The notes below the pieces were generated by a model that was not told the origin of the DNA, did no database searches, and was given only the letters and a program-made list of their open reading frames with translations. Shown here in pieces: positions 5,798 through 58,830 of a stretch of 64,000 bases of DNA. The stretch's first letter is position 1; each line of letters opens with the position of its first letter. Source of the DNA: a virus; IMG/VR virus record IMGVR_UViG_3300035034_001349, positions 1 to 64,000 of that record; one strand, given 5' to 3'. Position numbers and translations under genes: made by a program.

Positions 5798-5869
5798 AAT
5801 TATAACATCCTCCTCATTAATCTTTTATAAGTATTTATTTACTTATAATTATCCTTATAACTTCATTTA

Positions 5870-6360
5870 AATAATATATAATTAAAAACTATAATAACTT
5901 TAAATATAACCATATTTAGTACCTGTGATAGATTAAATTTGACTATATACAATATATTAATAACAATACTTATTGTATTAAATATAAGTAAAATTAAAAT
6001 TATTATAATTATTATCACTATAATAATATATAATTAGATATCATATTAAAATAAATTATTAATTAATTATTAATTTTAAATCTTTAAAAAATATTATATT
6101 ATTAATCATAATCTTCAATTATTTATTATTAATATTTTTTATTTATATCAATATTATGTATTAAGGTAAATATTTTTTGTTAAAATACTATTATAACATA
6201 GATATTAATAAGGTTAAAATTATATTAATATTTAAAGTAAAGGGGATATGGGGTTATAATTAATTATTTATATTTATTATAATTATATTGAATTATCATA
6301 AATTATACAAATAATTTTAGTTATAACAATTAATTAATCGAAATATAAATAATAAATAAT
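5870..6360. other. Extremely AT-rich intergenic tract with divergent promoters; origin-like
   Basis: Nearly G/C-free. Early motifs at ~5871 and ~6014-6032 (-), late motif at 6325 (+), G-rich box AAGGGGATATGGGTT at ~6240. Confidence 0.4.
6325..6336 (+). promoter_or_regulatory. Late promoter AACA-N6-TA
   Basis: AACA ATTAAT TA upstream of the RNAP beta gene. Confidence 0.7.
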
Positions 6361-12746: not shown

Positions 12747-12791
12747 TCAGCTCCTCTCTATTAATAATAAAATATTACTTAAATCCTTCTA

Positions 12792-12840
12792 ATCACTATT
12801 ATAATATATATTTAGAAAAAAATATAGAAACATTATATTA
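12792..12840. promoter_or_regulatory. Back-to-back early (-) and late (+) promoters
   Basis: TATATATTATAATAGTGAT (-, 12792-12810); AACA TTATAT TA (+, 12829-12840). Confidence 0.7.
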
Positions 12841-12872
12841 ATCACTGAATATAAAATGAAAGGAAGGTTATA

Positions 12873-14072
12873 ATGGGTAGATTAGTAAATGATGAGCAAG
12901 AAATAATCAGTAAAAATATAGATAACTACTTAGATGCTTCAACCTCAGAGTACAGTAAGTACCTCAATGGAGTACCAACATTTACAACTTATTATCATAA
13001 AAATGTAAATGCATCACACCAAGATGTAGGTCTAGAACAAGTGCAGGAAGTCATAGGAAGTGAGTCTCCTATACGATATGATAAAATAGATGACCTATCG
13101 TTATACGGAATATCACAGGCGGATTTACAATATGTTGTAGATGAAAATTATGGAGTGGAAAGTGAAGTTGAAGGTGATGCTATTGTACTACCAGATACAA
13201 TTAAGCCATTACCAGATGATTTCTTCTTAGTTAATTACAATGATACTGATTTATTATTCAGAGTAACTAATGTAAATATAGACAAAATGAATGGTAAAAA
13301 GTATTATAAGATAGACTTTGTATTATCTACTTATGACGTAGCACTAATAGAAGAACAAATTGAAGGCAACTATACACAATTCTTCGAAAATATAGGTACT
13401 GAAAAGAATACTATAGTTGAAAATAAAGATGGTCTTATAATCCAATATATAGACAAACTATTAGACTCTTTAACTACGAACTATTTAGAAGACTATATGA
13501 ATAAAAAAATTGATATATTGACTTATACATTTAACGACAAGATTCTTTATAACGAATTCCTAATAGAGTTTATAACTGACAATAATGTAATGTCTGAGAA
13601 TAATAATGTATTCTCCCAATATGTAATAGACAGTATTTTTGAGACAAATGATCGTAATTTTAACAATATGTATGATAAGACTATATATAGTGCATTAGAA
13701 TTAAATAACACTGATGATTTAGTGCCAAATAACTTGGTTGCTACTGAAATAACTAATGTAAATACTGTATTCTATTATGATATTAATACTTACTACTTTT
13801 TACAACATACTATTACAGAGAATGAAGAAGAAATAGTTATACCTTATAGTATGGATTTAGTAGATAATATTAAGAATAATACAACTTATACAGATGTCGA
13901 ATTATATTTTATAGAGAATATATTAGTTAATCACTTTAATGATAGTCTAGTTATTGATGAAGAATTCTTGGATACTATTAACAATCATGATTTTTCCATA
14001 GGTCTTTCAAACTTCTTACTTATTCCAGCATTAATGTTTGTATTACAACTTTATAAGAAAAAACTATTATAA
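12873..14072 (+). CDS. Probable virion structural protein
   Basis: 399 aa, late promoter, acidic; LPDTIKPLPDDFF beta-rich N-terminal domain. Confidence 0.55.
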   Translation: MGRLVNDEQEIISKNIDNYLDASTSEYSKYLNGVPTFTTYYHKNVNASHQDVGLEQVQEVIGSESPIRYDKIDDLSLYGISQADLQYVVDENYGVESEVEGDAIVLPDTIKPLPDDFFLVNYNDTDLLFRVTNVNIDKMNGKKYYKIDFVLSTYDVALIEEQIEGNYTQFFENIGTEKNTIVENKDGLIIQYIDKLLDSLTTNYLEDYMNKKIDILTYTFNDKILYNEFLIEFITDNNVMSENNNVFSQYVIDSIFETNDRNFNNMYDKTIYSALELNNTDDLVPNNLVATEITNVNTVFYYDINTYYFLQHTITENEEEIVIPYSMDLVDNIKNNTTYTDVELYFIENILVNHFNDSLVIDEEFLDTINNHDFSIGLSNFLLIPALMFVLQLYKKKLL

Positions 14073-14128
14073 ATTAACATTTAATTAATCAATACTAATA
14101 TAACAATAGAAGGGAACAGGTGGTTTTC

Positions 14129-14257
14129 TTGCTACAAGAATTTATTAAGATATTTAATGAGCAGAAAAAGGTTAACTTAAATGAGTCAAATCAAAATCTA
14201 GATGAAGAAAATATGAAAGTTCTAAAGGAAGAAGATAAAGGAAGAGTTTTATTATAA
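14129..14257 (+). CDS. Small late protein (42 aa, not in ORF track)
   Basis: Late promoter 14076-14087, AGGTGG SD, TTG start: MLQEFIKIFNEQKKVNLNESNQNLDEENMKVLKEEDKGRVLL. Confidence 0.55.
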   Translation: MLQEFIKIFNEQKKVNLNESNQNLDEENMKVLKEEDKGRVLL

Positions 14258-14279
14258 TTTAGAAGGGAGAAATGTTTAT

Positions 14280-14714
14280 ATGAAAAAAGTAAAAGTAATT
14301 GTTAAGCATAGGGGTCATGTACCATTTATCGGTCATGGACCAGTTACTAAGCCAATTTTTATTAATGATTCACAATTCAAAGTGTTGAAAAAGGGTGGCT
14401 ATGATGTTGAAAAGGTAGAAGAGCCAAAAATTAAGGAAGTAGAAGTAGCCGAAGTAGTTGAGGAAGAGATCGTTGAAGAGCAGGTAGAAGTAGAAGAAGT
14501 TACTGAGCCTGAAGAAGAAATCATTGAAGAAGTAGAAGAAGAAATTCTTATGGATGATGAAAACTTAAGTGCTGAAGCTTTTTATAATAGAGACTTCTTA
14601 ACAGTTTCAAAGTCAAAAGAAATATTAGATGCTAGAGGCATTGAATATTCTCATGATGAAAAAGCTAGTCCTTTAAAGGATAAGGTTGAAGAATCTAATC
14701 CTGAAACAGTATAG
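14280..14714 (+). CDS. Acidic hypothetical protein with C-terminal HeH/LEM-like helical motif
   Basis: E/V-rich linker; TVSKSKEILDARGIEY...LKDKV. Confidence 0.6.
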   Translation: MKKVKVIVKHRGHVPFIGHGPVTKPIFINDSQFKVLKKGGYDVEKVEEPKIKEVEVAEVVEEEIVEEQVEVEEVTEPEEEIIEEVEEEILMDDENLSAEAFYNRDFLTVSKSKEILDARGIEYSHDEKASPLKDKVEESNPETV

Positions 14715-14720
14715 CAAAAA

Positions 14721-14756
14721 AAAAACAGTAATAGCTTAATTGCTATTACTGTTTTT
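14721..14756. terminator. Bidirectional terminator
   Basis: AAAAACAGTAATAGC-TTAATT-GCTATTACTGTTTTT. Confidence 0.8.
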
Positions 14757-15149
14757 ATTTCCTTTATCAACTAGACTGAGTTCTACATTAAGAATTTCAA
14801 ACCAGCGTTTAAGTGTGGTAGTTGACATTGATGGTCTTGTTGCTAAACCGTAAAATAAATTGTATCCATCATGACCTTTTTCATCAGCATAATCATAGAT
14901 ATCATTTAACGTTATTTGTTTTTTATTAACTTCACTCTTGATTACAGTTACTATTTCATCATCAGTGTCAAAATGTTCCATCACAATTATTTCATCTTTA
15001 GATGTTCTATCCCCACCTTTAGTTCTTTTTAATGTAGATTTCTTAGATTTGGTACTCTTAACTTCTTTATTCTTATTTTTATCTATTCTGTCCTTTAATT
15101 TTTCATTACTATTTAAATATTCTTCATATAATCCGCCTACGTCTGACAT
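14736..15149 (-). CDS. Hypothetical protein, possible HTH-like C-terminus
   Basis: 137 aa, AGGAGG SD; GYNLFYGL...MSTTTLKRWFEILNVEL. Confidence 0.65.
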   Translation of the reverse strand: MSDVGGLYEEYLNSNEKLKDRIDKNKNKEVKSTKSKKSTLKRTKGGDRTSKDEIIVMEHFDTDDEIVTVIKSEVNKKQITLNDIYDYADEKGHDGYNLFYGLATRPSMSTTTLKRWFEILNVELSLVDKGNKNSNSN

Positions 15150-21404: not shown

Positions 21405-21623
21405 TTATTCCCTCCATTTATTTTATTAACTAAATAATAGATGTCCTCCCTTCAAAAATATATACATCATGTTTATAATATATAATTGGTATACTAACTA
21501 AAATTTACTCTTTTTTACTTTAAAAAAGATATTAAATTGTTATAATTTTTTATTTAAAAAATTATTTTTTGTTGATTAATTAATATATTCATAACATTTT
21601 ATTAATAAAATAGATGGAGGAGT

Positions 21624-33018: not shown

Positions 33019-33039
33019 ATCATAATAATAATATATATT

Positions 33040-35019
33040 TTAAAAGTCTATTATATTCGAGTAATATGTTTTCTGGTCTGTTAACTTTAGTTCTTTGAAT
33101 CCTAGTGATTTAAGTATTATTAAACCATGTCTAATATTATCCCCTACAATTTCATTAACTGCAATATAAGGTCTAATCCATTCAGGAATATTATCTACAT
33201 TCTTTGGGAATGCAATAGTTGTAAAACCAAATCTACTTACATCAAAGCTAGGTTCACCTGGGAGTGGCTTTATACCATTCTCATCTAAATGGAATACTTC
33301 TTTCATTAATATCTTATATTCTTCTTCATGACCATTTTCTAATAAATCTTTTAAGTCTTCTGGATTACCAGCATTCAATTTTAACAAGTTAATTTTCTCT
33401 GGTGGTGCGATTGGATCATTAGGGAATAACTCATTATGAATGATAGTACCACGTAATTGAGCCATTCTATCAGGAAATGCATAATTGCTTGATGGATTAA
33501 CTTTAAATGGTGTAGTAAACGTCATTTCACCTTTAGCAAGACTCTCATTAACTTCAGCTTCAAATGCCTTAAATTCTTTTAGTACTCTAGATAGTGATAT
33601 ATCATCACTGCCTAATATTTCATCTTCAATAACTTTTGTTAATACTTCTTCAACTCGCTTACTAACATTAGATTTCTTAATCGATAAGCCTTTCATATCA
33701 GTTATAGGTGGGTCTAACATAACACCTTCTCGTGATAATAGTCTACCTACATACTGTTTCTTATTTTCAGTAGACATAAACTTCTCGTATAAATACTCAT
33801 TCTTCATATTTATTATGGGTTGCTTTTCTTCACTTAAGTTACAATTCTCTGTTAATCTCTTTAGTGATGCTTCTATAAAGTGAGTTAAGAAGTATACACC
33901 TATGTTAACTACACTTATAGTATCTTCTTTAGTATCTTCTACTTCAAATCTTTCAGATATAAATTCATAGAATGGATTCATATAGATAAAGTTAGAATCT
34001 GTATCTACTGTTAATATAGACTCTCTTTTATCTTTGATAGCACGTTCATATCTATCATATATACTATGGTCATGATATACAAATTCTTCAAGTAAATCCC
34101 ATAGTAAATCAAGATTAGTAGATATTTCCTCATTAGCATCACCTGCATCAAGGAACTCTGTTCCGACTACATTACTTAAACAATTCATAGCCATATCACA
34201 TGCATCAAGAAATTTATATATTTGATTCTTATAGTAAATTACATTACGTTGTTCTTGATTAAGTAGTGACACTAAATTCCGAACTTCCTCAAATCCTTCA
34301 GTATCTTTTACCATACCCTCTAGATAAACTAATAACTCATCTTCATCTATGAATGAATCTTCTCTTATAATCTCACTAATTATAAATTCAGAGTCTATGA
34401 TAACATCAGTCATAAATTGAAGCATTTCAGATACATTATTTAGTTTTATATTATTACTTAGAAATCTCTCAAAACTCAACATACTGTGTGTAATAATCTG
34501 AACTCCCGTATATGTTACTGAAGCCGCAACTCTATTATTATAGAACTGACTTGTAGGCATACCTGATGCACCGTAGTATGAGTTTGCAAGTAATTTAAGC
34601 ACTGAGCCTTGGAGTCTGTCTAACGCTTTTGCTAATTCTTCATTACCATCTTTCTTAGCTTCAAACATTCTCTGCTTGGCATCATTACGTTCACTAAGTA
34701 AATAGTCAAGCATGCTTGTTATTAAGTTATTTGTTTCATCATGTTGCTTATAGAATACCCCGAAACCTGTTAGGATATCACCTTTCTTCATAAAATTATC
34801 AAGTAAATCTAGTAACTTGAATTTACCTTCTTTTTGTTTATAATCATTACTGAAGATAGCATCAGGTGATTCAAGCCTCTCATCAATTATAACATCTACT
34901 TGTCTACTTAATTCATCTTCATCTATATCTGGTTTGCTTAGACGAAGACCATTCATTATTTGCTCCTTGTATTCATTAATAAATATTGAATCTTTATTCT
35001 CCATTGACACTCCTTTCAT
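33040..35019 (-). CDS. Family B DNA polymerase, polymerase (fingers/palm/thumb) subunit of a split enzyme
   Basis: KLLANSYYG, VDTDS, KKQYVG, MKGL; AACA CATGAT TA at 35026-35037. Confidence 0.9.
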   Translation of the reverse strand: MKGVSMENKDSIFINEYKEQIMNGLRLSKPDIDEDELSRQVDVIIDERLESPDAIFSNDYKQKEGKFKLLDLLDNFMKKGDILTGFGVFYKQHDETNNLITSMLDYLLSERNDAKQRMFEAKKDGNEELAKALDRLQGSVLKLLANSYYGASGMPTSQFYNNRVAASVTYTGVQIITHSMLSFERFLSNNIKLNNVSEMLQFMTDVIIDSEFIISEIIREDSFIDEDELLVYLEGMVKDTEGFEEVRNLVSLLNQEQRNVIYYKNQIYKFLDACDMAMNCLSNVVGTEFLDAGDANEEISTNLDLLWDLLEEFVYHDHSIYDRYERAIKDKRESILTVDTDSNFIYMNPFYEFISERFEVEDTKEDTISVVNIGVYFLTHFIEASLKRLTENCNLSEEKQPIINMKNEYLYEKFMSTENKKQYVGRLLSREGVMLDPPITDMKGLSIKKSNVSKRVEEVLTKVIEDEILGSDDISLSRVLKEFKAFEAEVNESLAKGEMTFTTPFKVNPSSNYAFPDRMAQLRGTIIHNELFPNDPIAPPEKINLLKLNAGNPEDLKDLLENGHEEEYKILMKEVFHLDENGIKPLPGEPSFDVSRFGFTTIAFPKNVDNIPEWIRPYIAVNEIVGDNIRHGLIILKSLGFKELKLTDQKTYYSNIIDF

Positions 35020-35053: not shown

Positions 35054-35475
35054 TTAGATAGATACATCCCACGATTTACCAGTAAACTTATTCTTAGTAT
35101 CACATATCTCACACTTTGTTTTACTAAGTATAAATACTGTTATAGTATCACCCTTTATTATATTACCACACTTGATATGTTTTAGGGTAAAAGGTCTGTC
35201 ATATGATAACGCTGTTAGTGGTTCGTATTCGTCGCTATCTAACATTTCTAATAAGAATTTATGCTCATTAGTCCTCTTTAATCTTGAACACTCTGGACAC
35301 CGTCCACCTGAGAATAAGAAACTATTAGGTATAACTTTCCAAGAATGACCACAGTAATTATGTCTTACCATTAATTTTGTATGTGAATTAGTGTATGAAT
35401 CAATGACACTATATTCATCCCAGCTAATTCTTCAACTTCATTTTCAAATTCTTCTTGTGTTTTAGCTCTGCTCAT
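35054..35475 (-). pseudogene. Frameshifted Zn-ribbon-repeat protein (homing-endonuclease-associated type), no nuclease domain seen
   Basis: MSRAKTQEEFENEVEELAG / DEYSVIDSYTNSHTKLMVRHNYCGH..RCPEC joins only if one base is added at GGG near 35420. Confidence 0.65.
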
Positions 35476-36436
35476 ATCTTCTAACTTCTAAACCTTTTTC
35501 TCCATATAATAAATGAATTAATAGGTTATCTATATCCTCTTTTTCATTTTCTTCAATAGTATTACCTTCCACTAATAGATTTAATACAAGTTTACGTATC
35601 CTTAAATTATTGTAATATCTATCAGTATTAAAGTCTACATTCGCTAGAAGGTGCTCTAGTACCTCAGATACAATTTCTGAAGTACTAGTAATATTTGGTA
35701 ATTTATCCACAGGAGTATCTATAAATGCAAGTAAATGAGATTCAATAGCAGTACTAAGCCCATCATCTCGTTGCATTTTAGAAATGATTTCATTAATTTC
35801 ATCGGTTCTTTCTAACCTTCTATTGAAATTGAACTCATCATCAGTTTTTTCTAAATTATTATAAGGATTATATTCATCTTCTTCATTATTATCTTCATTT
35901 ATTATAACAAATTCAACCATATCACTTGTCTTAGCATGCTCAATCATTGCACTTTCCCTAAACTTTTTATCAGATACTACACGCTTAATACCAGCTGATA
36001 TCAAAGCCTTAGCACAGTCATTACATGGACTATGAGTTGTATATGCAGTAGCACCATTTATACCTATATTATTCTTACTTGCCTTAGTGATGGCATTTAT
36101 TTCCGCATGTACTTCATACATTTTAGACCATTCTCTATGTGCAAGAGGAATTGAATTCCCTCCATATAGTTCTAACCACTTATCACTATTTACTTTGTTT
36201 TCACCATCTTCATGTGTATACAATTCATTACAATTTACATCACCTGATATAGTTCCATTTAATCCTATTGAAAGAATATTATTATCTCTAACTATAATGC
36301 ATGCTACCTGCTTGCTAGCACATTTACTATGTGTAGCCATTAATTTAGCCATACTTAAATAGGTTTTATCCCACTCTCTATTATCTGTATTATAACTATT
36401 AACCAATTTCATTGTAGTTACTGTCATATATTTCAC
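35462..36436 (-). CDS. dCMP deaminase with ~140-aa C-terminal extension
   Basis: SKC..QV, GLNG, HAEINAI, SPCNDC. Confidence 0.9.
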   Translation of the reverse strand: MKYMTVTTMKLVNSYNTDNREWDKTYLSMAKLMATHSKCASKQVACIIVRDNNILSIGLNGTISGDVNCNELYTHEDGENKVNSDKWLELYGGNSIPLAHREWSKMYEVHAEINAITKASKNNIGINGATAYTTHSPCNDCAKALISAGIKRVVSDKKFRESAMIEHAKTSDMVEFVIINEDNNEEDEYNPYNNLEKTDDEFNFNRRLERTDEINEIISKMQRDDGLSTAIESHLLAFIDTPVDKLPNITSTSEIVSEVLEHLLANVDFNTDRYYNNLRIRKLVLNLLVEGNTIEENEKEDIDNLLIHLLYGEKGLEVRRYEQS

Positions 36437-38094: not shown

Positions 38095-38147
38095 CCCTCT
38101 CTAGTTATATAAAATATCACTCAACCAATTTTATAATATATACTTTA

Positions 38148-40016
38148 TTATGAGACTAATTCTATCATTTCTTTTAGGTTAGGTAAGTTGAAGTACTCTT
38201 TACCTAAACTTATATAATCTCTACTGGATAATTTATCAACAAAGTCATAACCTTTATCCTCTGATAATAATCCCTCTTTACGTATCTTTCTATATACATC
38301 TGGATATTCTTTCTTACATGCTTCTATCCATAGATCACTACCAATACCATACTTATCAATATCATCTAAGAATATTTGTTTTTCATCTAATAATTCAATT
38401 ATATCATTTTTCTTATTTTCAAGTTCTAAACTATCATATAGAATGATCTTACCACGTTGTGTAGTAATATCTATATTAAATGCAGATAGTATAGATGGGT
38501 ATAATGAAGATAAGTCCATATCGATAACTAAATCAAATACAAATTTAGAGTTTTTACCATTAATCTTAACCCCCACATTCTTATTTAACTTAGGATTAGC
38601 CACATACGCACCACGGAACTTACCACTTATAGGTCTAACTCCTCCATAATTTTTATTTCTATTATTACTAAGAATGTAGTCTTGTTGGAAATAGTATTTA
38701 ATAGCTAGGTTCTTAAGACAAATAGTCTTTTTTAGTGCTTTAATATTTCTAGTATTTGTCATAGAAGCAATCATATCTAAAGTTTCTATATCTTCATTAT
38801 TATCTTCAAGTAAACCCAATAGCATAACATCATGAATATTGTATTCAACAAAACGTTCATAATTTTTATATGGGAAATTCTTTATATCAATTCCTTCATT
38901 ATTAGGATCTATTGGTAACTTTTGTTCATTTATTTCTTCTTCAACAATAGCATCTAATTTATATGATTCTTTTTGTCCACTTACCTTACGTAAGTTTGCA
39001 TATAAAAGTAGTAAATCATTATATTGAGTATATGAAGCACATTTAAAGTAGTCACCTTTATCAGTAAATTTATTATTGTAATCATCATCATAATAGTATG
39101 CCATCTTATAGGGCATATCTGGATGACTAACTAATTCATCAGCTTCTATTCCACCTTGATTTTTAGCACGATTAATTAACGTAAGAATATCAAACTTCAT
39201 ATTCCACGCATTGTTAAAATCAGGTTTAGTGATATTGACTATATTGAAGTAATCTTTAATTAACTCAACCTCATCATCATAGAATTTAGTCTTAAATGTA
39301 ATATCTAAACCATATTGGTCTTTATACTTCTTGTTCATTCTCTTATTAAATTCATCTATATTCTTTTCAAACTCAGGAATTTGTGGATTTGGTCTAGAAG
39401 CATGTCTTAATAGCAATGTGAATGATGTTTCACTTTCTCTATCCCAATGTGTTATAGCATTTACTGGAGCTTCAGCTTTAGATTCTTCTGGGAATCCATC
39501 TACATCAATACCATCTACCTCGATATCAAAATATGCCTTAGTTGGTTTGTAATCGCTTTCTTCCATAGGATTATCTAACATATGCTTTGATATATAATAA
39601 TCTTCTATATTCATATCACTTCTATGAACATTTGGGTCTAAATGTAATTTTCTTGCATGACCTGCATTGCCACTCTTTAAGCAGTCATAAAAGAATGAGG
39701 TATTGTAGTTAACTTCTTCCTCATATACCCTAGATTCTAATTCATCTAGTTCATTAGCTACACTTTTTAATAAATCCCTATTATTAACCTCTACAAAATT
39801 TACCTTCTCAGGTTCTATATGTGCAGTAGGTATTTCTTGGTAATGCTCTGGTTTATTTATGAAATATAACATCTTTGGATCACTTACTAACTCAAAATAC
39901 TTCTCTCCAGTTTCCTCATTTCTAAGTATCTTAATTAGTTTATCATTAAACTTATTTCCTTTTCCATACTTCTGTGGGAAGTATATTGTATTAATTAATT
40001 TTATTCTATCTCCCAT
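38148..40016 (-). CDS. Family B DNA polymerase, 3'-5' exonuclease plus motif A subunit of a split enzyme
   Basis: ExoI FDIEVD, ExoII WNMKFD, YKLD, ExoIII YNIHD, GAYV, motif A DLSSLYPS; AACA AATCAA TA at 40057-40068. Confidence 0.9.
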   Translation of the reverse strand: MGDRIKLINTIYFPQKYGKGNKFNDKLIKILRNEETGEKYFELVSDPKMLYFINKPEHYQEIPTAHIEPEKVNFVEVNNRDLLKSVANELDELESRVYEEEVNYNTSFFYDCLKSGNAGHARKLHLDPNVHRSDMNIEDYYISKHMLDNPMEESDYKPTKAYFDIEVDGIDVDGFPEESKAEAPVNAITHWDRESETSFTLLLRHASRPNPQIPEFEKNIDEFNKRMNKKYKDQYGLDITFKTKFYDDEVELIKDYFNIVNITKPDFNNAWNMKFDILTLINRAKNQGGIEADELVSHPDMPYKMAYYYDDDYNNKFTDKGDYFKCASYTQYNDLLLLYANLRKVSGQKESYKLDAIVEEEINEQKLPIDPNNEGIDIKNFPYKNYERFVEYNIHDVMLLGLLEDNNEDIETLDMIASMTNTRNIKALKKTICLKNLAIKYYFQQDYILSNNRNKNYGGVRPISGKFRGAYVANPKLNKNVGVKINGKNSKFVFDLVIDMDLSSLYPSILSAFNIDITTQRGKIILYDSLELENKKNDIIELLDEKQIFLDDIDKYGIGSDLWIEACKKEYPDVYRKIRKEGLLSEDKGYDFVDKLSSRDYISLGKEYFNLPNLKEMIELVS

Positions 40017-40099
40017 GAACTTTCAACCGCCCTTTCATTTATTTTCTCTTAAAGTTTATTGATTTGTTAATAGTTATTTTATGCAAAAAAATAGTGAAA

Positions 40100-40591
40100 T
40101 TATTCCTGACTTGCAGATATAATCCCACTGATTTTTGCAGTCTTAAAGAAGCCTTCTTCATAGACATAACTTGTTGAAAAAGATAGTTCTACAGAAAGGA
40201 TTCCATTGTAATCACCTGTCATTATTTTAAACAAGTCTGTCTTAAATTCATTAGCGAAGTTGTTTTCAAGTGTATATTCATTTATTAGTCTATAATCGAT
40301 GTGTTTCTTTATATCATTCTCTTTTTCTTTAAATATTAATATACTGCCATTCTCATACATAATAAATATAAAATTCATATTATCTATTTCAAGTTTTATA
40401 AAATTTGAGTATGTCTTATTGATTTCTACATCCATTCTAAGTTCACTAGTTACGATTTCTAATATAGTATACAACTTATCTATATTCACTAAGATCTTCA
40501 TTTTTTCATAATAATCAGTAGGTGACAAATCTAAAAATTCACTCTTAATTTTATTATATTTACTAGAAACTTTATTAAGATTCATATTCAC
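40100..40591 (-). CDS. Paralog-array member
   Basis: NEFKTDLFKIMTG motif. Confidence 0.75.
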   Translation of the reverse strand: MNMNLNKVSSKYNKIKSEFLDLSPTDYYEKMKILVNIDKLYTILEIVTSELRMDVEINKTYSNFIKLEIDNMNFIFIMYENGSILIFKEKENDIKKHIDYRLINEYTLENNFANEFKTDLFKIMTGDYNGILSVELSFSTSYVYEEGFFKTAKISGIISASQE

Positions 40592-41063
40592 CTAATTCCT
40601 TTATAAAATTGCTAATACCTTCATTAATATCTATAACGGATAAACTAAACATAAAATCTCTTGTGAGTTTATCAACTCTAAGATTGAAAGTCGCATAGAA
40701 TATAGGGGATCTATCAGGGATTCCATTCATATGAAGTTTAAGTAATTCAATTATTATACTATCTCTTAATTCATCTGATAATATACTGCTTTTTCCACTA
40801 CATATATTTAACAATAGAGCAATAGACTGTGTATCATCATCAATTGATAATAATTCCAACTTATTATCATGTGTAATCAATATACCTAATTCAGTACCAT
40901 TAAGTGAAAATTTAACTATATTACTTCTATGGTCATTAATAAACAACTCATGAACACTTACTTTCATTCCTGATTCTATTCTAAGGTCTACTAGTATTTT
41001 CCTTATACTTTTCTGGACTTGATTGGAGTAAAGATACCGTGCAATGGATAATTTATTTTTCAT
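40575..41063 (-). CDS. Paralog-array member (divergent)
   Basis: Helix-beta-helix pattern, IIIELLKLHMNG. Confidence 0.7.
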   Translation of the reverse strand: MKNKLSIARYLYSNQVQKSIRKILVDLRIESGMKVSVHELFINDHRSNIVKFSLNGTELGILITHDNKLELLSIDDDTQSIALLLNICSGKSSILSDELRDSIIIELLKLHMNGIPDRSPIFYATFNLRVDKLTRDFMFSLSVIDINEGISNFIKELGEYES

Positions 41064-41236
41064 ATTATATTACCTCCTTAATCGCCATAATATACACTTG
41101 CATTCATAACTATCTTTTCATGTATTTTCTTATTTAGGTTGTCAATATTTGTTATATTGAATCTTCTATGCTTATCATATTGCTTTTCAAGTGCATATAA
41201 AATCTTAAAATCCACTAATGGTTTTACCCTTTCATT

Positions 41237-41689
41237 TTATACTGCAGTCAAAGAATAACCTAGTATTGATGGATGCTTACTTAGTCTATATGTGTTTCCA
41301 TGATCTTCAGTAAATATACATGTTTGCAAATTATCCATTCCAATTTCATTACCTACAAATATCTTAAATAGCTCAGATTTAAAAGAGGCTAGATCAGTAT
41401 AATTATATTCCCCAATGACTTTATAAATGTTGGACCAACTTACATTAACAGTAAGTGTTACGTTATCCCTAATTAATATTGCATATTCCGTTCCCCACAC
41501 TCTTAAACGTATTACATTGCACCTCGACTCTATAAGCTGATCTAAAGTGTCATAATAATATTTAGTATCACCAGATTTAGGTATACCAAATATACTGTAA
41601 AGTATATTATATACAACATCAAGCGATTCTATTAAGTTATAGTCAGGTTTTCCAGGTTTACTTACTTTAACTTTCTTTCTATAATGCAA
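41237..41689 (-). CDS. Paralog-array member
   Basis: ASFKSELFKIFVG. Confidence 0.75.
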   Translation of the reverse strand: MHYRKKVKVSKPGKPDYNLIESLDVVYNILYSIFGIPKSGDTKYYYDTLDQLIESRCNVIRLRVWGTEYAILIRDNVTLTVNVSWSNIYKVIGEYNYTDLASFKSELFKIFVGNEIGMDNLQTCIFTEDHGNTYRLSKHPSILGYSLTAV

Positions 41690-41710
41690 CAGTACGCACC
41701 TCCTTTAATA

Positions 41711-42277
41711 TTATATTATATCGCTAATTGAATTATCACAATCACCATAGTTGTATCTTTTAACACTATAATTATTTTCCCTTAGTTCATCTATATTATC
41801 AAACTTTTTATATAAACCTAGAAATAAACCTACTCCTGATGCCTTAGTATATCCTCGTATATTATTAAGTGTATAATATGAATCTGATACGTTATATAAA
41901 GGGTCTATAATCCCTAGGCTGGTAAATATCTTAAATAAATCTGGCTTTAATTTACTTATACCATCCTCATCTAGACTATATTCACCTACTACTAACACGC
42001 ATTGATTCTCACTAGCTTTCACACTTCTTGGGTTTGATTGTATACCATGCATGTTTATAGCTAAATTATTAGTCACTATTACTGCAAAGCAATCCAATAT
42101 AACCATTGTAAAATCTGGACTTAATTTTATGATATTGTCTGAATTTGGACTGGATACTTTATCTTTATGCTTTAGTCCTGGTATAACTTGTTCTATTTTC
42201 GTATTGAATATCTTAGTTGTGTTAGCTATTTTATCATATTCATAGATTTTTTCGTCTTCAAATATAAGTCCTCTCAT
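41711..42277 (-). CDS. Paralog-array member
   Basis: SKLKPDLFKIFTS. Confidence 0.75.
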   Translation of the reverse strand: MRGLIFEDEKIYEYDKIANTTKIFNTKIEQVIPGLKHKDKVSSPNSDNIIKLSPDFTMVILDCFAVIVTNNLAINMHGIQSNPRSVKASENQCVLVVGEYSLDEDGISKLKPDLFKIFTSLGIIDPLYNVSDSYYTLNNIRGYTKASGVGLFLGLYKKFDNIDELRENNYSVKRYNYGDCDNSISDII

Positions 42278-42289
42278 TTTATCACCTCA

Positions 42290-42694
42290 TTATCTATTTT
42301 CAGAATGTAATAATCTTACATAGTCACCATTATTTTCAATGACTGTTTCAACTACACATCCACTTGATTTATTACTAATATCGACACCATAATCTCCATC
42401 TGTAAACATTTTAAATACATGTGATTTGAATTTAGTAATTCTTTCATCATCTATATCCATTGTATCAATTAGGTATATAGGTCCTTTATGTTTAAAATAT
42501 AAAGCTAAGTCGAAAGTGTTAGAATACACAACTATTAATATTCTTCTATCTGTACTCGTTGTAATAGTTAGTGTATTCTTAAATATACTCACACTAGTCT
42601 CCCCAAATGTTTCATCTATAATAGATTTAAATAACTTTTTAAATCTATCAAGACCTCTAAGAACCGCTAACTCACTTTTTAAAGGGAAGATCAT
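42290..42694 (-). CDS. Paralog-array member
   Basis: FKSIIDETF; TKFKSHVFKMFTDG. Confidence 0.75.
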   Translation of the reverse strand: MIFPLKSELAVLRGLDRFKKLFKSIIDETFGETSVSIFKNTLTITTSTDRRILIVVYSNTFDLALYFKHKGPIYLIDTMDIDDERITKFKSHVFKMFTDGDYGVDISNKSSGCVVETVIENNGDYVRLLHSENR

Positions 42695-43074
42695 AAGTTG
42701 GATACCGTATTGATCATATTATATTTTCTAGAACCATACTCTTTTACTGTAAATTCCACTATTTTAACATCTTTAGTAAATACAACAGTATCATGAACAA
42801 GTTCAAATAAATAATGTCTAAAATCTTCGACCTCATCAATTGGTATACTATAAAATAATGCATTATCCTTTGGTCTTACTATGTTAACACACTTATCATC
42901 CCAATTGAATATTACATATGGTTCATCATCTCTTAATTTAGTCACTTTCATTTCATTAGAGTAATCCATAGAACTTTTAATTCCATTAATAAATGTATCA
43001 CATATGATTGGAAAAAAATCACTCATAAATTTTGAACCTAGTAAATTAATATCATTAGCATAATTATGTTTCAT
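42691..43074 (-). CDS. Paralog-array member
   Basis: FFPIICDTF; EDFRHYLFELV. Confidence 0.75.
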   Translation of the reverse strand: MKHNYANDINLLGSKFMSDFFPIICDTFINGIKSSMDYSNEMKVTKLRDDEPYVIFNWDDKCVNIVRPKDNALFYSIPIDEVEDFRHYLFELVHDTVVFTKDVKIVEFTVKEYGSRKYNMINTVSNL

Positions 43075-43075
43075 A

Positions 43076-43531
43076 TTATCTCTCCTTTAACTCAACTTCT
43101 CCCACTTTAATTTTATAATGTTCTGTATTTCCCGACTCAAGCACTAACGTATCTGTATTAAATTTAGTAACAATGTCTCCATCTTTTGTTTCAGGTGTAC
43201 CATTGTTAAATAATTTAAACAAAGCTGACTTGAATTTATTAATGTCATCTAATTTTATTTCATCTATCTGTAGGTCATATACAGAGTCTACAATAGTTAC
43301 AGAATCCTCACCTATGATAAAATCTATAAATCTATTCCAATCACTTTCCATTTTTGGTTCTATTAATATTAATATTGATAGTGAATTTTTATATTCCCAT
43401 GATGTTACATATTGTGAATTGTCATTAAGGAATAATTCATTTATAACAGGTTTAAAGTTTATAATGAATAAATCTATATTTTTGTTAATCTTATCTACAT
43501 CATATGAAAATTTTTCTTTACTAGCCCTCAA
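43076..43531 (-). CDS. Paralog-array member
   Basis: FKPVINELF; NKFKSALFKLFNNG. Confidence 0.75.
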   Translation of the reverse strand: MRASKEKFSYDVDKINKNIDLFIINFKPVINELFLNDNSQYVTSWEYKNSLSILILIEPKMESDWNRFIDFIIGEDSVTIVDSVYDLQIDEIKLDDINKFKSALFKLFNNGTPETKDGDIVTKFNTDTLVLESGNTEHYKIKVGEVELKER

Positions 43532-43536
43532 TTACA

Positions 43537-43756
43537 TCATCCTCCCATACTAAATATTAAACCTAAGCCACCATTGTCTATATAATCACCCTTTACAGAC
43601 TCAGTCGTTTCTATACTATCTTTCTCAGTCTTTATTCCGAATAATGTTAACTTAAACTTATTTATCAAATTCTCATCAGAGAAATTTATTATATTGATCG
43701 CCATGTGATGTTTGAAGTATAAATGGTTTTAAATCTTCTGAATTTTTATTATTCAT
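43537..43756 (-). pseudogene. Internally deleted, frameshifted paralog-array member
   Basis: MNNKNSEDLKPFI, then out of frame LYFKHH...NKFKLTLFGIK (compare LYFKHK...TKFKSHVFK in 42290..42694). Confidence 0.55.
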
Positions 43757-44178
43757 TATTCAACCTCCATTACATAACTATCATATCCAGTATTAATAAT
43801 CTCTTTGAGTTCAACTAAGTTATATATCTCATTTTCAAAACCTAAATTAATACCATACATTTTGTCATAATCATCAACATCAATCATACTGCTATTAATT
43901 CTAAATACTACATTTTTCCAGTTATTTAAGGAGTTGGTATCATTAGGTATACTTTTAATTCTCCTATACGTATCAATGAATCCAAGGTCACTCATATCTT
44001 TTATAAGTATAGATGCTCTTCCATTAATCATAACCTCAATACATTCATCAGATAATAATACACACAACTTCTTATTTATAGCTCTATGGCTTATCATTAT
44101 TGTGTTTAATTTAATATCACAATGTATATCTAATATACTTTCATATACAGGTAAATACTCTTTAATAAATGTTTCCAT
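43756..44178 (-). CDS. Paralog-array member; true start may be ~44234, across an A9 frameshift
   Basis: YLPVYESIL; NNWKNVVFRINS. Confidence 0.65.
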   Translation of the reverse strand: METFIKEYLPVYESILDIHCDIKLNTIMISHRAINKKLCVLLSDECIEVMINGRASILIKDMSDLGFIDTYRRIKSIPNDTNSLNNWKNVVFRINSSMIDVDDYDKMYGINLGFENEIYNLVELKEIINTGYDSYVMEVE

Positions 44179-44345
44179 ATTTTTTTTTCTCTAATACTTT
44201 CTTTATTCATAGTAGGTTCTTTTATATTAATCATTATCTTGTCTTACTCCTCTCATATTCATAAACATTAAAGTGACTATTGTCACCATCATCTACTTTT
44301 TTTTTAATATAAATACTTCTCCTTCTTCCATATTCTCATTACACC

Positions 44346-44684
44346 TTAGTTTAAATATAAATTTTTCCAATTTGAAGTATAAAATTTATCGTTAGCTATG
44401 TGCTCAATCTCGGTATATTCTGTTACAATACTATGCTTATACATTCTCCCCAAGTCTTTATCTACGTACTTCTTTCTTCTTACTCCTGTAGATTTATGTC
44501 TAAGTATATATGTTGCATCTTTCTTAAATACTGCCTTAACACTTTTAATATCTTCACTTAGTTTAAAATATAGGACTACGGAATTTAAATCAACCGAATG
44601 ATTTGAGAGTATAAATAATTCTTTAAATATAGGTAGTATATTCTTATTGAATCTGTCGACTTGACTTAATTCATCATCATACAT
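44346..44684 (-). CDS. Paralog-array member truncated by homopolymer frameshifts
   Basis: ILPIFKELF; adding one A after TGG gives WKKFIFKL, matching WRKFIFNL of the neighbouring gene. Confidence 0.65.
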   Translation of the reverse strand: MYDDELSQVDRFNKNILPIFKELFILSNHSVDLNSVVLYFKLSEDIKSVKAVFKKDATYILRHKSTGVRRKKYVDKDLGRMYKHSIVTEYTEIEHIANDKFYTSNWKNLYLN

Positions 44685-45214
44685 TAGATTAAATCCTCCT
44701 CAAATATATACTCTGAGACATTGAAGCGTTTACGTATTACACCTCTACTTCTTCTACTTATACTATATGACCTAACCTCATTATATGACACATTATCACT
44801 ATTCAGATTAAATATAAATTTCCTCCAATTAGTATTATAATTATAGTCATATTTAATATACTCTAGTTTTAAATATGCTTGGAATTGTTCTTTAGTATTA
44901 TAATTATAGTCATATTTAATATACTCTAGTTTTAAATATGCTTGGAATTGTTCTCCAGGCTTATCTCCTCCAGCATGTCTAAAACTATGATACTCTATCG
45001 GTGCTCTTATGACTAAGGTATCCTGTTTCATTATGTAGACTCCACTAGGTTCAAATACAAGATATAATGGCTCTATTTGAGCAAATTCCAGATTAATCAC
45101 ATTAGACATTTGACCATTTCTTAATACTTTGAATACTGATTCAAATTCATTAAGAGTATACTCAATAAAATCACTTATTTTTGTTGAAATTATATTATTT
45201 TCTTTTTTATCCAT
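44684..45214 (-). CDS. Paralog-array member with a 21-codon tandem duplication
   Basis: TNWRKFIFNLNS; EQFQAYLKLEYIKYDYNYNT occurs twice. Confidence 0.7.
   Translation of the reverse strand: MDKKENNIISTKISDFIEYTLNEFESVFKVLRNGQMSNVINLEFAQIEPLYLVFEPSGVYIMKQDTLVIRAPIEYHSFRHAGGDKPGEQFQAYLKLEYIKYDYNYNTKEQFQAYLKLEYIKYDYNYNTNWRKFIFNLNSDNVSYNEVRSYSISRRSRGVIRKRFNVSEYIFEEDLI
44829..44954. repeat. Perfect 63-bp tandem duplication
   Basis: 44829-44891 is identical to 44892-44954. Confidence 0.9.
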
Positions 45215-45248: not shown

Positions 45249-45283
45249 AACAAATTATTAATTAATCAATATTATAATATATA
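45249..45283. promoter_or_regulatory. Face-to-face late (+) and early (-) promoters
   Basis: AACA AATTAT TA (+, 45249-45260); TATATATTATAATATTGAT (-, ~45265-45283). Confidence 0.6.
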
Positions 45284-45343
45284 TTTAAATTTAAAACATA
45301 AATTAGGAGGTGTGGTAAGTCTAATAACTTAGACTTGTATAAT

Positions 45344-47623
45344 ATGGCTAAAAAGAAGAACAATAAGATACTAGATACTTTAAATCGTTTAACAACGGGT
45401 GCTATATATGGAACAGATCAAGATGTTCATGATTCCAATAAAGCAGATATAACCGAGATTAAGGGTATCATAAACAAAATTAATGGTAAGTATAAGCAGA
45501 ATACTGGCTCAGAAATGATGGACTTTTTCAATAGTGTTAGTAATAATGAAAACCGCAAGAAGAAGGATGAAGATAGTAAGAAGAATAAGAAGAAAGAACT
45601 TATAAAATTAGATGATATAGTCAAGACTGATGAATATCAGAATGCTATAAGTGATATATTCTTCTCAGAGAAAGATAGATTTAATCTTTATCATAACTTC
45701 GACTTAATCTATAATAATATACCACAGATGGGACAAGCTTTAGATACATATGTGGATAATATATTATCACCAGATGATTTCACTAAGAACATATTTAATG
45801 TAAAATATAATGATATAGCTTCAGAAGTGACTAAGGATATTGTAATGTCTAATTTAAATAGGATAAAAAAGAATTACAATATTAAGTATAATGCTAAGAA
45901 GTATATTAAGAATGCTTTAAAGAATGGTGATGAATTTGTCGCAGTACTAAAGATAAGTAAAGAGATTGATAGATTACTTGTAGAAGATGAAGATGAAGAA
46001 CTTTTCTTTGATAGAAGTAATGATGATGGAAAGAAGTTAGGTACTGAAGATATACGTTTAACTAATGAAGAATTATCAGTGCTTGAATCAATGAATAAGC
46101 AGTCTAAAGGTGATAAAGTACTAAACTTACAAGAGAGTATGAAAGGTAATGATTACAAACAGTTAAAAGAAAACTGGCAAAGTTATATATCTGAGATATT
46201 AAATGAAAATATTGAAGTTGAATATGATAGTAAGTCATTAACAAATAAGATAAAACAAGTACAAAAGGACTTTGCATCTGATAAAAGTACTACTATTGGA
46301 GACAATATTGGGGGAGATAATAATAAGTCTAAAGATGATAAGAATAATGCAATTGAACTTAATGGTTCTATAGTAAAGAGGTTAGAACCTGAGAATGTTA
46401 TAAAACTAGAAGTAGAAGGCGTTAACTATGGTTATTATTATATTGAAAAGAGAGATGAAAGATTTGGTGAATCTAAGAGTACTAATCAAGCTATAACTGA
46501 TATAGACTTAAGTTTCTCAAATGGTGACCTTGACGATAATACAAATAAAAAAGTAAAACTTGTAAATGATATATTTGCTAAGAATATAGCTAGTAAAATA
46601 GATAAGACGTTTATAAAAGATAATCCTGAATTCAAGAATATTATTCATAACCTTTTAAGAAATAACTATATAACAAATGGTAAGGTAAAAATTATATATC
46701 TACAACCAGATGAGGTAGTACATTTCAAAGGTGATGATGATGGGTCTGTTTACGGGGAGTCTTTATATAAAAATATACTATTTACAGCTAAAATGTACTT
46801 AACTGTTTTAACTAGTGATTTAATGAGTAAATTAGTTAGAAGTCCAGATAAGAGAACTTTTTATATAGAAGTTGGGTTAGATGAAGATAGCGAAGCAGCT
46901 GTAGAGAGTTTTGTAAGAGATATTAAGACTAAAGATATAACTATGGATAACCTTAAAGATATAGATACTGCTATGAATTCAGTTGGTACGTTCCAGGATT
47001 ACTATATTCCAGTAGTTAATGGAGAAAAACCAGTTGAAATTGATAGAACTGATGGTCTTGACACTGATATTAAGAATGACTTCTCTGAGTATCTACTTGA
47101 AGCTATGATTTCAGGCGTAGGTATACCTAAAGATTTCCTTTCTTATAGTGATACTGAGTTTGTACGTTCGTTAGCAATGCAGAATGGTAAATTCATTAGA
47201 AGCATTATAGTAAAGCAATCTATGATGGCAGAAGGATTCAATAAGTTGATTAGAATGATTTATAAGAATGAATTTGATCATAAAGGTAAACAAGGTGAAG
47301 ACTTTGATGTTAGAAGTATACTTCAGAATATATCTGTAGAATTCCCACCACCATCATCACTTAATGTAAGTAACTTAAGTGAACAGATACGTAATAGTGG
47401 TGACGTTATAAATTTCATAGTTGAAACTTATATGGGTGATAGAACAGAAGATGAAGAATTAAAGAGAAGATTTAAGAAGACAGTTACTAAAGAATTTATT
47501 CCATCAATTGAATGGAGTAGATATGATACTATTTATGAAAATGCTATTAAAGGTAAAACAAAGGATGAATTACTTGTAGACGGAGGAGAAGACGAAGATT
47601 CAGGTGGAGGAAGTTCTTGGTAA
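45344..47623 (+). CDS. Portal protein (T4 gp20-like)
   Basis: ALDTYVDNIL, LKNGD, RSPDKRTFYIEVG, QDYYIP, GVGIP. ATG 45344 is preferred over TTG 45335, which lies inside a hairpin. Confidence 0.8.
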   Translation: MAKKKNNKILDTLNRLTTGAIYGTDQDVHDSNKADITEIKGIINKINGKYKQNTGSEMMDFFNSVSNNENRKKKDEDSKKNKKKELIKLDDIVKTDEYQNAISDIFFSEKDRFNLYHNFDLIYNNIPQMGQALDTYVDNILSPDDFTKNIFNVKYNDIASEVTKDIVMSNLNRIKKNYNIKYNAKKYIKNALKNGDEFVAVLKISKEIDRLLVEDEDEELFFDRSNDDGKKLGTEDIRLTNEELSVLESMNKQSKGDKVLNLQESMKGNDYKQLKENWQSYISEILNENIEVEYDSKSLTNKIKQVQKDFASDKSTTIGDNIGGDNNKSKDDKNNAIELNGSIVKRLEPENVIKLEVEGVNYGYYYIEKRDERFGESKSTNQAITDIDLSFSNGDLDDNTNKKVKLVNDIFAKNIASKIDKTFIKDNPEFKNIIHNLLRNNYITNGKVKIIYLQPDEVVHFKGDDDGSVYGESLYKNILFTAKMYLTVLTSDLMSKLVRSPDKRTFYIEVGLDEDSEAAVESFVRDIKTKDITMDNLKDIDTAMNSVGTFQDYYIPVVNGEKPVEIDRTDGLDTDIKNDFSEYLLEAMISGVGIPKDFLSYSDTEFVRSLAMQNGKFIRSIIVKQSMMAEGFNKLIRMIYKNEFDHKGKQGEDFDVRSILQNISVEFPPPSSLNVSNLSEQIRNSGDVINFIVETYMGDRTEDEELKRRFKKTVTKEFIPSIEWSRYDTIYENAIKGKTKDELLVDGGEDEDSGGGSSW

Positions 47624-51634: not shown

Positions 51635-52036
51635 CTATTTAACTAAATCTACACTACTTTCAATTATGATATCAATAAAGTTATCTAAATCACCATACAT
51701 ATCTGTAATATATTTCTTAGTTTCATTATTTATAGTTGTTTTAAATTCCTCAGTAACATCCTCTTTAATTTTTATACCTTCTTCTTTACTTAGTTTACCC
51801 TCAGAATCTCTAAGAGACTTAACTATACTACTTTCTGTAGCCATCATGATTTCGAATAATACATCTTTACCAATAGTGATGTATTTAGCCTTAAGTTCGT
51901 AGTACTTGTCATCTTTTTCACTTTCAATTAACTTAATCTTTGATGTTAGATATACTTGTAATAATCTAACCACAAAGGTGAATAAACCTGTTATCAATAC
52001 CACCAATACATTTGTAATAATTTCATTAAAATCCAT
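51635..52036 (-). CDS. Holin-like membrane protein
   Basis: One N-terminal TM helix, then a charged helical domain ending IIIESSV (LL-H-holin-like layout). Confidence 0.5.
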   Translation of the reverse strand: MDFNEIITNVLVVLITGLFTFVVRLLQVYLTSKIKLIESEKDDKYYELKAKYITIGKDVLFEIMMATESSIVKSLRDSEGKLSKEEGIKIKEDVTEEFKTTINNETKKYITDMYGDLDNFIDIIIESSVDLVK

Positions 52037-58575: not shown

Positions 58576-58811
58576 AATCCACCTCTCTTAAATTCATTTT
58601 TTAATTTTTTAAACATTAATTTTAACAAAGTTATTAATAGTATAAATTTTCAGTTTTACTATGTTAATTTAACTTTATTATTAAATTGTTTATTGACTCT
58701 TATGTAGTTATTTAATTTTTTATTTAAACAACCAATAGATAGTATATAAAAATATTATCTTAATATAATGTTACATAAATTACTATGAAAATTATTATTT
58801 TTTTATTTAAA

Positions 58812-58830
58812 TATATATTATAACAATGAT
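58812..58830 (+). promoter_or_regulatory. Early promoter
   Basis: TATATATTATAACAATGAT upstream of nvRNAP beta-N. Confidence 0.7.

Follow-up and report, generated by a model that had tools for sequence, protein, structure and literature searches.

The early promoter of the Bacillus phage AR9, AAATATATATTAT-(N6)-G(+1), has been defined experimentally and is read by the injected virion RNA polymerase (PMC5312081). Amplification of counter-defence genes has been documented in large phages, namely for tifA of phage T4 (PMC9391042) and as a process driven by SegB (PMC13096335); a review of the topic (PMC13359090) also cites the genomic accordion at K3L of poxviruses. Here we describe a gene array that shares traits with both kinds of system. 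It lies at positions 40100-45214 of a 64,000-nt stretch of viral DNA (positions 1 to 64,000 of virus record IMGVR_UViG_3300035034_001349; hereafter the window), where twelve consecutive small open reading frames (ORFs) on the minus strand fill the space between an AR9-type early promoter and a DNA polymerase gene. Its closest parallels are the early units of AR9 and other phiKZ-related jumbo phages (PMC5312081): the promoter matches the AR9 early consensus identically and, as in AR9, the unit adjoins the DNA polymerase gene. In the array, however, the promoter is followed by a run of small genes of unknown function with an eleven-member expansion of paralogues, whereas AR9 has no genes at this place and no detectable homologue.

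The twelve ORFs are numbered g12 to g1 along transcription. They are spaced by -17 to +21 nt, except for 51 nt before g9 and 167 nt before g10, which agrees with the consecutive, mostly tightly packed small genes described in a first-pass annotation of this DNA. A Shine-Dalgarno (SD) sequence is clear in eight genes, while g6 is stop/start coupled, g9 is without an SD and g10 is without a clear one. Sequence comparison indicates that eleven of the twelve ORFs likely form one very diverged family, made up of nine full-length members, a fragment (g9) and a truncated copy (g11), with g1-g9 forming one cluster (I) and g10-g12 another (II). The features of the array are, in the order of transcription (z is the Smith-Waterman score relative to shuffles; ranks and bits are from the profile tests described thereafter):

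45267-45286, minus strand: AR9-type early (virion RNA polymerase) promoter, exact AAATATATATTAT-AATATT-G, predicted start G at 45267; the g12 ATG follows after 52 nt
44684-45214, minus strand: g12, 176 aa, cluster II, NWRKFIFN helix, internal 21-aa duplication, z 4.3 to g10 and 5.1 to g11
44829-44954, no strand assigned: 63-bp x 2.0 tandem duplication in g12, in-frame, 100% matches and score 252 in Tandem Repeats Finder (TRF)
44346-44684, minus strand: g11, 112 aa, cluster II, truncated within the signature helix (NWKNLYLN*), z 5.2 to g10
44179-44345, minus strand: spacer of 167 nt, with no open frame, significant gene relic or stable structure
43756-44178, minus strand: g10, 140 aa, full-length member of cluster II, YLPVYESIL helix and NWKNVVFR helix
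43537-43704, minus strand: g9, 55 aa, C-terminal half with FKLTLFG helix and G-turn hairpin, z 4.2 to g5 and 3.1 to g6
43076-43531, minus strand: g8, 151 aa, central member of cluster I, FKPVINELF and FKSALFK, z 7.1 to g7 and 5.6 to g6
42691-43074, minus strand: g7, 127 aa, FFPIICDTF and FRHYLFE
42290-42694, minus strand: g6, 134 aa, FKSIIDETF and FKSHVFK, leave-one-out rank 1 with 23.4 bits
41711-42277, minus strand: g5, 188 aa, LKPDLFK, longest C-terminal tail, leave-one-out rank 1, z 4.4 to g1, 3.9 to g4 and 4.2 to g9
41237-41689, minus strand: g4, 150 aa, FKSELFK, leave-one-out rank 1, 12.1 bits against the g6-g9 profile
41078-41215, minus strand: g3, 45-aa ORF in the gap between g4 and g2, no detectable family membership
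40575-41063, minus strand: g2, 162 aa, divergent member without the FK..LFK motif
40100-40591, minus strand: g1, 163 aa, FKTDLFK, last gene of the array, leave-one-out rank 1 with 19.3 bits, z 4.6 to g4 and 4.4 to g5

The 55 pairs of array members have a mean z of 1.52, and 14 of them exceed 3, whereas the control set, 105 pairs formed by 15 further small genes from this genome, has a mean of -0.13 and a maximum of 1.7 (Mann-Whitney p 8e-8). Cross pairs of array and control genes average 0.04. The best array pairs in phmmer reach E-values of 0.001-0.03 (database of 223 sequences), and the sole link obtained by jackhmmer within the genome is that of g7 with g8. In a leave-one-out test with profile hidden Markov models (HMMs), the omitted member was ranked among about 2,400 sequences (223 real ORFs and 2,200 shuffles); it came first for g1, g4, g5, g6, g8 and g10, and third to fourteenth for g9, g11, g12, g2 and g7. 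Two other ORFs that surfaced in these lists (51635-52036 and 69827-70231) were rejected, the family motifs being absent by eye. Sub-profiles of g6-g9 and of g1/g4/g5 mutually detect each other. With the g1/g4/g5 profile the divergent g2 obtains 11.9 bits, a value attained by 1 of 500 shuffles, and with that of g6-g9 it obtains 6.6 bits, in both cases exceeding the 211 other ORFs, and g9 scores 7.8 bits against the g1/g4/g5 profile, a score that none of 500 shuffles reaches. The similarity extends to the DNA: over 31-44 nt, the signature-helix codons of g1, g4, g5, g6 and g8 share 66-81% identity. Pairwise scores and leave-one-out profiles hence support the array of about eleven highly diverged paralogues that had been proposed, with the exclusion of g3, which does not resemble the family in whichever frame it is read (z at most 2.1) and is unmatched in a six-frame HMM search. 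It does not appear to be a family member and may not be a gene at all. Adjacent genes are most alike (mean z 3.29), as had also been claimed, and similarity declines with gene distance (Spearman rho -0.32, p 0.019); because of this decay, an origin by stepwise local (tandem) duplication is supported.

All the motifs on which the family was first recognised are found in the translations, aligned in register and, in models of g8 and g10, within predicted helices. The aligned elements are an N-terminal amphipathic helix (…F-x-P-[IV]-x-x-E-[LT]-F), short alternating-hydrophobic strands with D/N/G turns between them, an acidic turn, and the signature helix with the consensus [FWL]-[KR]-x-x-[LVIF]-[FY]. 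Most members continue with a C-terminal hairpin containing a nearly invariant Gly (…E-x-x-G-[DN]-x-Y…), and the tails are of very different length. The AlphaFold2 (AF2) model of g8 (predicted local distance difference test, pLDDT, 62; predicted template modelling score, pTM, 0.56) displays helix H12-35, five strands, helix H97-109 and a disordered tail; that of g10 (pLDDT 67, pTM 0.64) displays helix H2-16, a strand meander and helix H83-96. An exhaustive structural comparison found about 35 of the top 50 neighbours to be common to both models, among them frataxins (scores of 7.4 and 5.1-5.2), PsiB, DR_1245/YbjN-type proteins and type III secretion system (T3SS) chaperones, and further AcrIIA11, the TriTu immunity protein and the C-terminal domain of MotA; T7 Gp1.2 and Med17C were also among the structural neighbours. 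Single-sequence models from the ESM Atlas for g10 (pTM 0.30) and g6 (pTM 0.53) also have CyaY/frataxin among their nearest structures (TM 0.42/0.52 and 0.40/0.50, respectively), so that frataxins recur among the neighbours of g8, g10 and g6. In the models, an N-terminal helix is followed by an antiparallel meander of five strands and a C-terminal helix, an order that may correspond to that of the alpha-beta5-alpha sandwiches of frataxin/CyaY and Nqo15-like proteins. Ten members gave no Pfam match to Frataxin/CyaY (PF01491) at E <= 1.

Taken together, the models suggest a sandwich of helix, five-strand antiparallel sheet and helix with frataxin-like topology, which is a common fold. Structure prediction followed by Foldseek, the route first envisaged for identifying the domain, yielded no match at E <= 0.001 in the PDB or in BFVD. 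T3SS class I chaperones, PsiB, AcrIIA11, TriTu and T7 Gp1.2 score within the background of common folds and have no sequence similarity to the array. In type III secretion chaperones the order of strands and helices is different, a helix being inserted after the third strand. The scores of these neighbours are within the range typical of a shared arrangement without kinship, so that not much about function can be read from the fold. In the signature helix, a single face carries the conserved F, L and F (positions i, i+4 and i+5). This helix had been described as a constant docking element, a view that is not supported here: a helix packed on a sheet needs conserved residues on one face, so that a docking role is not required and a role in the core is simpler. 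The conserved basic residue beside the aromatic one is not accounted for by packing on the sheet.

The claim that the array is expressed early is supported by the exact match to the AR9 early promoter at 45286-45267, from which early expression may be predicted. With at most one mismatch, the early motif occurs 8 times in the window, where 0.94 copies are expected and none of 100 shuffles reaches 8. Besides 45286-45267, no match with fewer than two mismatches occurs between 40000 and 45400. The early promoter that follows on the minus strand (38145-38126) lies past the N-terminal half of the polymerase gene. A scan of the array for terminators found none that was convincing, a hairpin at 44287-44272 being within chance expectation. 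Since the single exact early promoter lies upstream of g12, the array most simply reads as one early transcript running toward the polymerase gene, and it may continue into that gene. The seven further copies of the early consensus (0-1 mismatch) are located at 5864-5883, 6016-6035, 12794-12813, 21468-21487, 33021-33040 and 38126-38145 (all six on the minus strand) and at 58809-58828 (+); they provide a map of the early transcription units of this phage.

The promoter-to-polymerase interval can be compared with that of three related phages:

AR9 (portal 37% identical): annotated early promoter separated from the polymerase gene g132 by about 100 nt, no intervening genes
G002 (IMGVR_UViG_3300032251_000002, 97.6 kb; sheath 45% identical): portal, divergent spacer with exact AAATATATATTAT-ATGTTT-G, five small genes, polymerase N-terminal half
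G001 (portal 38% identical): polymerase and portal share one strand, as they do in AR9, no such slot

The five slot genes of G002 encode proteins of 104-170 aa (locus L017, G002:C1:2000-21000, positions 12752-14776). None of these proteins matches the array family, to which they have a mean z of 0.02 with no value above 3. They likewise lack matches to known families, and among themselves they form one weak pair (s2-s3, z 3.0). By eye, they read as helix, strands, helix. As the interval contains no genes in AR9 and five unrelated orphans in G002, the space between early promoter and polymerase is apparently a site of fast-turnover cargo, which in the present phage is filled by the expansion of one gene. 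In a relative whose portal is 38% identical (L001, 7422-9991), genes of 156, 343 and 351 aa are located between the polymerase region and the portal. None of these three matches the array family. The 343- and 351-aa genes resemble each other in an N-terminal segment of 72 aa (28%; E 0.004 in a very small database) and may represent a second lineage-specific duplication at this locus.

Sequence searches for relatives of the family bear out the description of its domain as unrecognised. Scans of ten members against Pfam, PHROGs and PADLOC gave nothing significant (profile threshold E <= 0.001 for PHROGs and PADLOC); the best PHROG E-value was 0.015, and the best PADLOC match, to BrxB, had an E-value of 0.022 in one member only. 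The profile search of PDB sequences gave one marginal match, the Spc24 globular domain (E 0.026). Neither blastn with the 5.1-kb array nor tblastn with g8 found a match in 50,697 phage records, and g12 found none in viral and metagenome contigs. A word-index search of 5.8 billion proteins returned the phage's own alleles only. An exhaustive HMM search of 1.84 billion protein representatives returned these alleles and P0013, a 1,440-aa repeat protein with six weak profile-matching stretches, taken as a chance match. The YxiG families, a feature-based lead from the Atlas (score 0.80-0.81), were rejected as lying below chance level and lacking Pfam support. A search of related jumbo phages with a family profile had been suggested at the outset; at E <= 10 per genome it detected no copy in AR9, BpSp, LPJP1, UFV_DC4, phiR1-37, Flavobacterium phage immuto, G001 or G002, while in its own genome, as positive control, the profile recovers all members. 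Left-out members score only 8-23 bits, and the billion-sequence searches could therefore detect close orthologues only. Absence of relatives, in this material, means that none are visible to sequence profiles, and about 70% of the phage's own genome is outside the record. The family is thus to be described as lineage-specific and new at the sequence level, a tandem expansion of early genes of a sort well known in large phages.

Polymorphism was assessed in contigs of four other lake samples, which are short and of low depth (2-6x). Every depth bin of the array is covered in three runs; in the fourth, all but one bin outside the array are covered. The contigs are otherwise nearly identical and differ only by single-nucleotide polymorphisms (SNPs) and 1-nt indels, apart from one low-support 4.1-kb joint with a 25-nt side. 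Three kinds of altered copies had been pointed out in the array. The fresh duplication is a perfect in-frame tandem repeat of 63 bp x 2 at 44829-44954 in g12 (TRF; repeat family D2). Alleles of g12 in other assemblies (P0002 and P0003, 155 aa) are without it; the duplication is probably allele-specific and less likely an assembly artefact. The deleted copy is g9, which consists of the C-terminal half and is probably a deletion remnant. Of the supposed frameshifted copies, only g11 can be confirmed: it stops within the signature helix and has 1-nt indels at 44448 and 44361 in other samples, as well as an allele with an alternative tail (P0012). The 167-nt spacer upstream of g10 is full of stops in its three-frame translation, has a fold z-score of -0.55 and contains no Rfam family. 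The idea that it is a relic of the g11 C-terminus, based on an 'FNVxEY' match to g12 (z 1.7), was rejected, as the best relic similarities (z 1.7-2.7) are not significant.

No whole-gene change of copy number was seen in these contigs. Of the gene accordion that had been suggested, an origin by tandem duplication is supported and current activity is not, the only changes found being the 63-bp duplication and small indels. Like poxvirus K3L, T4 tifA and the SegB-driven amplification, the array appears to have arisen in a large DNA virus through tandem duplication within an early region, with copies probably gained and lost, and a very recent internal duplication is an additional accordion-like trait. 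On the other hand, known accordions consist of recent, near-identical repeats that come and go in populations, whereas the array copies are ancient (about 20% identity) and no change in whole-gene number was seen among the five lake samples; moreover, a counter-defence role of the array is a matter of interpretation. Diversifying selection, also part of the original proposal, is not borne out. The array (5.1 kb) has 7 SNPs, 4 nonsynonymous and 3 synonymous, and the flanks (10.9 kb) have 11, 4 nonsynonymous and 7 synonymous; these are too few sites, with no signal either way, and the paralogues are too saturated for an estimate of dN/dS.

The jumbo-phage setting assumed for this DNA is confirmed. 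The record is a 74,328-nt virus contig of an uncultured phage; CheckV estimates the completeness of this contig at 29%, and the full genome would accordingly measure about 250 kb. Over 84% of its length, the portal has 37% identity with its counterparts in Bacillus phages AR9 and PBS1, with remoter matches to other phiKZ-related jumbo phages, and the host phage is, on this evidence, apparently an uncultured jumbo phage of the AR9/PBS1 type. Near-identical DNA is present in lake-water and salt-lake metagenomes of 2017-2019. The array is flanked by the following features:

38148-40016, minus strand: N-terminal half of a family-B DNA polymerase (phrog_3011, E 2.5e-58), the next gene downstream of g1
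40057-40068, minus strand: AR9 late-type motif AACA-N6-TA, a pattern match in the spacer before the polymerase gene
45335-47623, divergent from the array: portal gene, flanking the array on the g12 side

Further out lie genes for the C-terminal half of the polymerase, a dCMP deaminase, a virion protein and the tail sheath. Four genes separate the two halves of the family-B DNA polymerase (33040-35019 and 38148-40016); one of them is that of the dCMP deaminase (35462-36436), which is consistent with a uracil-DNA lifestyle as in AR9/PBS1. The late-type motif is too degenerate for enrichment (114 found, 132 expected), and the copy at 40068-40057 is only consistent with a late promoter for the polymerase gene. 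A 1-nt insertion polymorphism at 40092, in two lake samples, is located in the same spacer between g1 and the polymerase gene, close to this motif. The motif also occurs at 45249-45260 (+), within the divergent spacer of 120 nt and about 75-85 nt before the portal start, so that this spacer may carry back-to-back early and late promoters.

The array proteins are small and soluble (127-188 aa when full-length), with no membrane-like segment in the translations and neutral to negative hydropathy. Pfam, PHROGs and PADLOC reveal no catalytic, nucleic-acid-binding or known-family signatures in them. Extreme acidity of the kind seen in DNA mimics was considered and rejected, as the isoelectric points range from 4.5 to 9.2 (background median 5.2). 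Their structural neighbours are mostly small protein-binding modules (T3SS chaperones, PsiB, AcrIIA11, TriTu, T7 Gp1.2, Med17C). Four traits of the array are typical, in well-studied phages, of host-takeover and counter-defence proteins that bind host proteins: predicted very early expression, small soluble products of ordinary charge and without signatures, a conserved core with variable surfaces and tails, and a replaceable slot. On this basis we tentatively hypothesize, as the leading explanation, that the array may be a repertoire of early host-directed binding proteins, acting in takeover or counter-defence. The injected virion RNA polymerase would read the whole array at the onset of infection, proceeding in the direction of the DNA polymerase gene. 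The core of the fold would consist of the conserved helices and the hydrophobic strands, while the sheet surface, the loops and the C-terminal tails vary between copies. Each copy would then bind or inhibit its own target stoichiometrically, the targets being either different host proteins or variants of a single one, and copies would be gained by tandem duplication and lost by truncation. As the AR9/PBS1-like phage group uses uracil-containing DNA, the targets could, more speculatively, include host enzymes that attack such DNA. G002 fills the slot with other orphan genes, which led us to consider a stronger version: a repertoire of target-specific inhibitors on one scaffold, belonging to a previously unseen superfamily of early proteins for counter-defence or host shutoff, in a slot that would be a general site for anti-defence cassettes in AR9-like jumbo phages. 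This extension is somewhat doubtful.

Several observations weigh against a repertoire of host-directed binders. Both AF2 models, of moderate confidence, were built on the same paralogue alignment; none of the RNA runs listed contains the stretch; population SNPs display no excess of amino-acid change; and two to three of the twelve ORFs look decayed, which would also fit relaxed selection. Furthermore, the link between clusters I and II is moderate, and one may ask if two unrelated small-protein families (g1-g9 and g10-g12) are located side by side, their shared helix being due to convergence or composition. Cross-cluster pairwise z-scores are mostly below 2.5, a cluster II profile detects none of the cluster I members, g12 scores 0.7 bits against the cluster I profile and is joined to the family through g10 and g11 only (z 4.3 and 5.1), and the comparison of three-sequence sub-profiles by hhalign, envisaged early on as a check of kinship, gave probabilities of 0.1-23%, which are not significant. 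However, g11 scores 11.6-12.6 bits against cluster I profiles, exceeding the 211 other ORFs, and the 12.6 bits obtained with the g6-g9 profile are reached by none of 500 shuffles; g10 scores 8.6 bits, reached by 1 of 500 shuffles, and exceeds all 211 other ORFs. In addition, the order and spacing of motifs are identical across the clusters, the AF2 topology and the lists of structural neighbours are the same for g8 and g10, and the independent Atlas models of g10 and g6 both have CyaY among their neighbours. We regard two separate families as very unlikely. Membership as first proposed stands for g1, g2 and g4-g11, and for g12 by way of g10 and g11, with a bond of only moderate strength between the clusters.

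Decay also raises the question of whether the array is mostly neutral cargo, that is, a duplication-prone and weakly selected stretch of drifting and decaying copies with little important function. The g9 fragment, the truncated g11 with its polymorphic indels, the unassignable g3 and the dead 167-nt spacer would all fit such an account, as would SNPs without a signal of selection and a family confined to one lineage. Long-term drift would, however, destroy the fold-core pattern and the signature helix, which are retained even in DNA; nine copies are full-length and open at about 20% identity, most of them with good ribosome-binding sites, and we consider neutrality of the array unlikely. Another explanation is directed at the phage itself: the copies could serve interchangeably as accessory subunits, adaptors or chaperones of proteins in replication or transcription, for instance of the split DNA polymerase or of the phage's RNA polymerases. 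The N-terminal half of the polymerase is encoded on the strand of the array and probably belongs to the same early transcript, and chaperones and scaffold subunits (T3SS chaperones, Med17C, the MotA C-terminal domain) are among the fold neighbours. Yet one would expect a core partner to persist wherever the machinery does, whereas relatives with the same polymerase and portal are without the family (AR9, BpSp, LPJP1, UFV_DC4, phiR1-37, G001 and G002) and the slot of G002 holds unrelated genes. A role in the phage's own machinery is distinctly unlikely on these grounds.

Large phages carry many lineage-specific early genes, which have repeatedly been found to inhibit host defences or core machinery. 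The phage described here is uncultured, about 29% of its genome is in hand, and its proteins are known here from sequence alone. The most useful new point is the promoter-marked, clearly bounded slot, the content of which is wholly different between related phages. Eleven natural variants on one scaffold are well suited for comparing what changes between copies, and because the family is without detectable relatives, any function found for it would be new. If the reading as an inhibitor repertoire is true, every copy would have a target of its own to neutralise among the defence and DNA-repair proteins of the host.

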